Source: an uncultured Parachlamydiaceae bacterium (GTDB lineage: Bacteria; Chlamydiota; Chlamydiia; Chlamydiales; Parachlamydiaceae). Taken from it: 64,000 bases of DNA. The notes under the pieces are model-generated. The model was not told the origin of the DNA. It saw only the letters and a program-made list of their open reading frames with translations, and ran no database searches. This document shows, piece after piece, positions 53,586 through 54,137 of this stretch. The translations under genes and the position numbers were made by a program. The stretch's first letter is position 1. Every line of letters starts with the position of its first letter. Location: the NCBI GenBank assembly GCA_963752155.1, contig CAVVXH010000015.1, positions 32,001-96,000 on the forward strand, read 5' to 3'.

Positions 53586-54137
53586 TCAACGATACAACGA
53601 TACAACGATAAAACGATAAAAACGATAAAAACGATAAGAACGATAAGAACGATAAAAACGATAAAAACGATAAAAAACGATAAAAAACGATAAGAACGAT
53701 AAGAACGATAAAAAACGATAAAAAACGATAAAAAATGATAAAAAATGATAAAAAATGATAAAAAATGATAAAAAACGATAAGAATGATAGAAATATTTGT
53801 GGAATACTCAGTGCGTCACAGATTTCTTCTAGATTAGTCGAAAAGTCTTCATTGCTTTGCAGTAATTTCCTATGCCGGAAATTTACTAACAAACCGATTT
53901 AAAGTTGAGAAACTTTTAAATAGTTGAATAATTGCGCCTGATATTCGCAAACCAAACTTTTACAACATTTTAATTTCACGATTACGGTTTTTCATACAAC
54001 CAGACTTCTTCCATCGTTTTTATAGTTTTTTATCGTTCTTATCGTTTTTATCGTTTTTATCGTTCTTATCGTTTTTATCGTTTTTATCGTTCTTATCGTT
54101 TTTATCGTTCTTATCGTTTCTATCGTTTTTACCGTTG
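53586..54137. repeat. Inverted pair of 8-10-bp tandem arrays: (AACGATAAR) about 22 units and (YTTATCGTT) about 13 units, around a spacer of about 220 bp
   Basis: Left arm 53586-53790, right arm 54013-54137. Confidence 0.95.
53800..54003 (-). pseudogene. Remnant of a GxxExxY-family (PD-(D/E)xK) protein, C-terminal half
   Basis: One frame reads LVV*KTVIVKLKCCKSLVCEYQAQLFNYLKVSQL*IGLLVNFRHRKL, matching the family pattern LIVExxVIVELK...HxAQLLNYLK...GLLINF. Confidence 0.8.

Follow-up and report, generated by a model that had tools for sequence, protein, structure and literature searches.

A multi-copy deletion derivative of a putative GxxExxY nuclease-plus-arm cassette in a Parachlamydiaceae genome

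MITEs are non-autonomous, internally deleted derivatives of IS. Ssn is a GIY-YIG nuclease with demonstrated activity, and its cognate SRMs are inverted repeats of 20–50 nt; in the extracts of the source used here, at least one SRM is found at 71% of the genes, and SRMs lie on both sides of 42% (Chenal et al. 2025, PMC11893778). RAYT is an IS200-like tyrosine transposase, portrayed in the available portions of two studies as single-copy and apparently immobile (PMC3116915, PMC3733652). The GxxExxY family (PDDEXK_3/TIGR04256) is recorded as having unknown function and multiple transfers, and its entry, in the excerpt that treats it, mentions neither flanking repeats nor a mobile unit (PMC3424549). 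No description of a link between GxxExxY genes and flanking arms was found in the openly accessible literature that was searched, and the nuclease-plus-arm cassette presented here is apparently unpublished.

The window is a stretch of 64,000 nucleotides from an uncultured Parachlamydiaceae bacterium (GCA_963752155.1, contig CAVVXH010000015.1). An earlier note, made from its letters, had pointed to a GxxExxY pseudogene between inverted tandem arrays and interpreted the whole as the decayed autonomous form of an element analogous to RAYT with its flanking REPs. The locus (positions 53586–54138) consists of a left array, AA(C/T)GATA repeated 22 times (53588–53789), a 223-bp spacer, and an inverted right array of 14 reverse-complement units (54012–54136; TRF count 13.7). 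It forms part of a composite block that sits between convergent LRR and TPR genes (Table 1). The note had given about 22 and 13 units and a spacer of about 220 bp, in good agreement. The ends it had read are present as TCAACG at 53586 and CGTTGA at 54133–54138, the latter reaching one base further, and the minus-strand translation of the spacer with its two stops was reproduced as written. Folding of the strand of the locus yielded −126.7 kcal/mol (z −13.5), and none of 100 shuffled sequences folded equally well.

Table 1 Coordinates of the window locus, its components and its neighbours
Feature	Window positions	Strand	Remarks
Left neighbour: leucine-rich-repeat (LRR) protein, 621 aa	51447..53312	+	
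Composite repeat block, entire	53469..54288	.	outer CATACGCATCAGGAT/AAGGAT arms at 53488 and 54182; ragged ends
R flank module	53545..53585	-	travels with many copies
Downstream arm (relative to the gene)	53586..53795	+	22 AACGATA-type units, period 8–10
GxxExxY remnant	53816..54014	-	first 10 nt of the ORF (ATG 54014–54012) joined to nt 216–416 of the intact gene
CAA>TAA at Q107	53899..53901	-	common to 6 of 9 copies
E82K	53974..53976	-	unique to the window copy among 9 copies
TGA stop at G77	53992..53994	-	unique to the window copy among 9 copies
Internal-deletion junction	54004..54005	-	common to 9 loci; GxxExxY motif and catalytic D72 gone
Upstream arm	54012..54138	-	14 AACGATA-type units in minus-strand reading, extending into the ATG
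L flank module	54139..54181	-	travels with many copies; some of it also found beside the intact gene and in congener G001
Right neighbour: TPR protein, 694 aa	54292..56376	-	

With X placed at the two stops, the remnant translation scored 47.7 bits against PF13366 (E 2.4e-12, cut-off 22) and 49.1 bits against TIGR04256 (cut-off 35). Both scores exceed the curated cut-offs and bear out the GxxExxY (PDDEXK_3) identity proposed for the spacer. The PF13366 match spans profile positions 65–108 of 117, so that the spacer corresponds to the 3′ half of the gene, encoding the C-terminal half of the protein; the loss of the N-terminal half, also noticed earlier, results from an in-gene deletion joining the first 10 nt of the ORF to nt 216. 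The two stops and the Glu-to-Lys change in the ExK motif are real. The deletion junction leaves the remnant out of frame with its own ATG. As judged from its sequence, the window copy is a pseudogene, devoid of the GxxExxY motif and of D72 and carrying E82K. Named close homologues come from Parachlamydiaceae and Chlamydiales, which makes an environmental chlamydia the probable host.

The genome analysed (3.13 Mb, 80% complete) contains a sole intact gene of the AACGAT type (C10:277099-276674), to which the window remnant is 86.6% identical. It encodes a protein of 141 residues, P0001, and is bracketed by 27 and 9 units of the AACGATA word. P0001 has the GxxExxY motif and a complete D-ExK triad, scores 135.7 bits against the family, and matched PF13366 alone in a Pfam scan. 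Parts of its ORF are held by 28 loci, the intact one and 27 fragments. One junction, from nt 10 to nt 216, is common to nine loci including that of the window, and later changes are nested among the nine: a stop codon in six and a 12-bp deletion in four. The single junction with its nested mutations indicates that this type of copy spread after the death of the gene. The window locus is thus not the decayed autonomous form, as had been supposed, but one of nine dispersed copies with one common internal deletion, the intact form residing on C10. Derived by deletion from a nuclease-plus-arm cassette, it is dead, non-autonomous and present in several copies. Other deletions of the ORF are also recurrent, for example from nt 63 to 323, and at least four distinct ones are each retained inside the arms. 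Altogether the genome has 31 convergent inverted doublets able to form hairpins, and 24 of these 31 array pairs enclose part of the cassette. The spacer at C5:172948 is inverted relative to the outer L and R flanks. The R module is joined to L at 12 places, matching one R–L junction and lying mostly between outward-facing arrays; these copies have long outer flanks in common, several with CAGCAATT ends.

The amplification of one internal deletion to nine sites, the inverted ends and the presence of an intact parent in the genome are reminiscent of MITEs. Unlike MITEs, the copies have no fixed terminal repeat or target duplication, and a family profile search with the parent gene found no match to a transposase family. 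The cassette shares with the Ssn/NTS system, in the parts of its description used here, a small gene for a single-domain nuclease with cognate inverted repeats on its flanks, many gene-less repeats, and a pairing of protein and repeat that varies by lineage (PMC11893778). It differs in that GxxExxY proteins are predicted to belong to the PD-(D/E)XK and not the GIY-YIG type, and are known here from sequence whereas Ssn is known from activity; moreover, the GxxExxY arm is a tandem run of a 6–7-nt word that pairs with the opposite arm only. The only GIY-YIG match in the genome lies on C19. Features in common with REPIN/RAYT, REPtrons and TIRtrons, as depicted in the portions of the two sources available, are inverted doublets that form single-stranded DNA hairpins, intergenic dispersal, one cognate gene per genome, nesting, and tandem clusters (PMC3116915, PMC3733652). 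In contrast with REPIN/RAYT as depicted there, the GxxExxY gene lies inside the doublet, the dispersed copies retain remnants of it, and several GxxExxY genes often occur per genome; the AACGAT arrays have no cognate Y1 tyrosine transposase, the RAYT-like system of this genome being separate. The proposed analogy with RAYT and REPs holds for the layout but not for the chemistry, which differs, and no defined ends were found.

All 103 proteins of the family that were compared share E33, D72, E82 and K84, Q96 is found in 97 and Y100 in 92; the last two form a QxxxY motif. The AlphaFold model of P0001 (pLDDT 88.3) was best matched by Cas4 SSO0001, LHK-Exo and lambda exonuclease (PDB 4IC1, 3SYY and 1AVQ; E 4e-5 to 2e-4), with middling scores: identities of 13–20%, a TM-score of about 0.5, and Z 8.4 at an rmsd of 8.0 over 104 residues. 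From this restriction-endonuclease-like fold and the conserved acidic residues and lysine, P0001 is predicted to be a PD-(D/E)XK nuclease. GxxExxY proteins have the fold, the D-ExK triad and the QxxxY motif in common with Cas4, lambda exonuclease and RecB-like nucleases but are shorter, and likeness of fold alone gives no function. A sequence search of the PDB with a family protein returned two uninformative matches (E 0.4–0.5), and a single weak match in PADLOC (E 0.013) was dropped.

The family is large, with about 6000 stored stretches matching a single peptide pattern. The sample consisted of the best 80 of 547 GTDB loci, drawn from 7 of the 64 collection parts by a single peptide pattern. 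An intact gene with full flanks was present in 69 of the 80, and 112 neighbouring ORFs served as controls. Across phyla, inverted arms were found at 45 of the 69 intact genes (24 failed the test) and at 3 of the 112 neighbouring genes, an enrichment that the earlier note had anticipated. A strict test demanding two-plus-two tandem units gave 34/69 versus 2/112 (Fisher p 3e-15). Direct copies of the arms were found at 11/69 versus 1/112, an enrichment that arises because arms recur in alternating order. The usual arm is made of three units of a 7-nt word spaced by 9–10 nt, and one arm begins immediately before the start codon, the other immediately after the stop.

The repeat unit type follows the protein phylogeny, as had also been suggested. 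On a quick tree of 102 proteins (123 columns, 58 proteins with a called word), every named word class of at least four rows clustered (0/500 shuffles), with host phyla mixed. The four AACGAT-armed proteins form one branch (SH-aLRT 91; 0/500 shuffles), nested in a group with a support of 96 that includes the CAGGAT type. Residue 31 was concordant with the word ending at 51 of 58 loci, Leu going with AG at 24 and Phe with AT at 27; this match largely reflects one split of the tree, so that direct reading of the word by the protein is not demonstrated. Among 41 genomes, which as kin are not independent, AACGAT arrays occur in 12 of the 27 relatives with a GxxExxY match and in none of the 14 without; six of the 12, all draft genomes (73–91% complete), had no close match to P0001. 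The arms in relatives are also found nested inside hairpins of other words, and have mirror-copied flanks in G020, G022 and G037. An AACGAT-armed gene 78% identical to P0001 lies on a contig of 2 kb whose title names a Patescibacteria MAG (L051), by transfer or misbinning. The family had no match in 50,697 phage records and matched 8 of 72,556 plasmid records, all typed as non-mobilizable.

Slippage does affect how long the arrays are, as their range from 2 to 50 units shows. Long arrays are also hard to assemble, and the lengths given here come from the assembly, not from reads. Slippage microsatellites or assembly artefacts lying by chance beside a pseudogene are nonetheless a scarcely credible account of the arrays: in other genomes the AACGAT word brackets the same protein clade as three or four units, arms are rare at control genes, and the triple-word pattern that has 834 matches in this genome has none when reversed, here or across the 41 genomes. 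As a sole cause, slippage or artefact is ruled out by the enrichment over controls and the co-descent of word and protein.

The window contains other hairpin systems. REP/REPIN hairpins of the AATGTCAG type are found at 4443–4592, 17467–17616, 30814–30922, 43840–44151, 45851–46052 and 62442–62669, and at 139 loci genome-wide. They flank a RAYT-like gene (C10:596670-597707; 71.7 bits, below the cut-off of 80); the flanks of the two Y1_Tnp genes of the genome are AATGTCAG and another palindrome, not AACGAT. A CAAGGAC inverted array lies at 8191–8482, and the same word brackets a four-helix-bundle pseudogene with one in-frame stop (C1:43174-43740 of G000; TIGR02436/TIGR04258). Four-helix-bundle genes were first known from rRNA inserts (Pfam name 23S_rRNA_IVP). 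Arms of the xGGAC type were found at 6 of 10 testable TIGR04258 genes from 15 loci, and a profile search of these genes gave no match to a nuclease family; the arm layout therefore does not require a nuclease. The repeat systems are nested at 45851–46052, where a CAAGGAC-armed unit takes the place of the interior of a AATGTCAG hairpin, and at about 43945–44115 and 62485–62560, where MITE-like palindromes ended by GGGACTGTGCAA, with an apparent TAA duplication, lie in AATGTCAG hairpins.

Gene-less GCAAAG/CACAAAG hairpins occur at 4683–4774 and 51143–51280, and their word is also present at the full-length GxxExxY genes C4:110655 and C6:157328. At 11522–11586, CACAGAG arms face outward (tail-to-tail) with mirrored inner flanks, in parallel with the R–L joined AACGAT copies; none of 31 such CACAGAG loci starts with a forward arm and ends with a reverse arm, and 29 hold both arms. 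The words of these two hairpin types, GCAAAG and CACAGAG, are those of the Leu-31 GxxExxY clade, which has full-length members at C4 and C6. The gene-less arrays of the window had been proposed to be relatives of the locus, which applies loosely to GCAAAG/CACAGAG and fails for the AATGTCAG hairpins, which flank a RAYT-like gene, and for CAAGGAC, which matches the arms of a four-helix-bundle gene. At least eight tandem units of about 550–580 bp, 60–96% alike, span about 31770–43370 and are probably a small array of paralogous genes.

Among 93 intact genes tested, both neighbours were called for 41; the gene was co-oriented with both in 30 cases and opposed to both in one. Co-orientation was found in 9/9 and 12/12 cases in further sets. 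The 28 loci of this genome fall into the possible orientations as 8/8/6/6. We infer that the cassette arrives without regard to orientation and that the gene needs host transcription to survive. Co-transcription of intact genes with their neighbours, the ability of the arms to pair and the shared layout of the four-helix-bundle genes would also fit an element acting at the RNA level, in which pairing of the arms in the transcript, as an intervening-sequence-like stem, a terminator or a stabiliser, is what is selected. This reading is most improbable given the random orientation of the dead copies and a count of 128 G.U versus 134 A.C pairs at 73 loci (p 0.76; noisy arm alignments), which reveals no wobble bias on the sense strand.

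No AACGAT cassette is found behind the orthologues of the TPR gene in G001 and G002. The TPR and lnt junctions of two congeners are without it and differ in gene order; as the G001 and G002 junctions have different neighbour genes, they provide no exact empty site for the window locus. Presence/absence at orthologous sites, which the earlier note had also called for, is seen in two genera as a patchy occupancy of conserved junctions. The cassette was present in 9 of 29 loci at a Mucilaginibacter junction (the 30 best-scoring of 61 genomes, less one that is unpublished), with seven changes on the flank tree and clustering no greater than in shuffles (181/500), and in 13 of 28 loci at a junction of a Verrucomicrobiae genus (the 30 best-scoring of 41 genomes, less two with just a single flank), with six changes; both fractions are upper bounds, since ranking by score favours filled loci. 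Well-supported sister rows differ in occupancy, and cassette and flank trees of one genus appear to conflict, as judged by branch supports of 99–100. An HMM match, enriched arms and polymorphic occupancy, the opposite of what would have spoken against the original proposal, were thus all found.

Bare cassettes fill junctions of 470–550 bp between conserved genes, and compact ones at operon junctions begin no more than a few bases away from the stop codon of the gene upstream. Arm-only forms are clear at L273, L274, L280 and L244 only, and doubtful at L277 and L279; the junction at L274 bears a collapsed arm footprint. Most cassette-free test junctions are occupied by other palindrome families. 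One and the same junction of a genus contains, depending on the species, a GxxExxY cassette, GTCATT-tagged or CCCTC-type palindromes, or heptamer runs (L229–L288). The term 'SRM-like' was rejected for these other occupants, as the published SRM pattern was found in 0 of 35 short junctions; they resemble the CGTC/TGTC-tagged palindromes, as presented in the extracts of PMC3733652, by their end tag only.

The outer palindromes around the nine deletion copies vary among them and have ragged ends. No fixed ends common to the nine were found, and their best target-site duplications, of 4–8 nt, were not above chance, at least 4 nt being obtained in 235 of 300 null trials; decay after insertion could hide fixed termini and target duplications. 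Two DNA sequencing runs containing a small share of the genome covered mainly arrays, and no joint was recovered. If GxxExxY were a true transposase that excises a defined arm-to-arm unit, by peel- or cut-and-paste as proposed for RAYT/REPIN, the 12 R–L copies could be integrated circle junctions; the start of compact cassettes close to upstream stop codons and the footprint at L274 would also fit. Such a transposase is unlikely. Besides the lack of common ends and of above-chance duplications in the nine copies, the fold matches listed are of the Cas4/exonuclease kind and include no recombinase or DDE/HUH transposase, and the single sequence of the R–L junctions is what amplification after one deletion event would give.

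Copies of the CACAGAG type in the relative G035 have flanks in common, whose translation appears to resemble an IS5-family transposase; these transposase-like flanks were present at all 10 truncated and all 6 intact copies inspected. The 67 matches in G035 were accordingly ruled out as a sign of self-mobility, and copy number there reflects hitchhiking. At L190–L205 of G035, intact and truncated GxxExxY cassettes have been amplified as cargo in transposase-like elements, and three truncated cassettes lie head-to-tail at L206. For some copies, movement is probably due to an outer MITE or IS wrapper. The cassette might even be a passenger throughout, spreading solely in IS, MITE or REP wrappers, with the arms of the nuclease maintained because they serve the cell, for instance in an Ssn-like restriction of single-stranded DNA that enters it; Ssn, in the part of its description used here, is a precedent for this (PMC11893778). 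The G035 flanks, the long common flanks of the R–L copies, several of them CAGCAATT-ended, the outer palindromes of the nine deletion copies and the RAYT-like genes of the genome lend this some plausibility. We consider it doubtful nevertheless, as the wrappers vary between copies and have ragged ends, bare cassettes occupy junctions with no room for an IS, and the various deletions have each been retained within the arms.

The missing fixed ends and target duplications, together with the transposase-like flanks in one relative, make cutting at the arms with arm-templated repair the likely mechanism. We place a probability of about 0.55 on the intact enzyme cutting at or near its own arms, with host repair between arms copying, inverting and nesting the cassette. 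An enzyme of the P0001 type would bind and cut its own arms, probably as a single-strand hairpin, and repair by the host would then draw on other arms, through template switching or gene conversion. Repair of this kind would produce the flipped spacers, the arms expanded to 50 units, the carried flanks, the ragged ends and the absence of target duplication. It would also mirror flanks, as seen in the three relatives, and might replace, in a homing-like manner, any hairpin already at a junction. Insertion would be blind to orientation, and intact genes would rely on read-through transcription from the host. A broader proposition, to which we give somewhat less than even odds, is that GxxExxY proteins are the engines of an undescribed minimal selfish DNA. 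They would be word-programmed PD-(D/E)XK nucleases, with one 6–7-nt word per clade, homing without a transposase between hairpin-bearing gene junctions and competing with other hairpin systems for slots.

The window locus is a dead copy, and its value lies in the system to which it belongs. The genome supplies a matched set composed of the enzyme P0001, its word and 27 natural derivatives. The predicted substrate for each clade is the arm word, which turns the family into the subject of a one-week assay. If the words are read clade by clade, the family would constitute a natural library of site-specific nucleases of about 130 residues. If the enzyme drives the spread, it would represent a third chemistry, after RAYT and Ssn, among nuclease-plus-hairpin systems, and one class of short tandem repeats lying between genes in many phyla would be explained.
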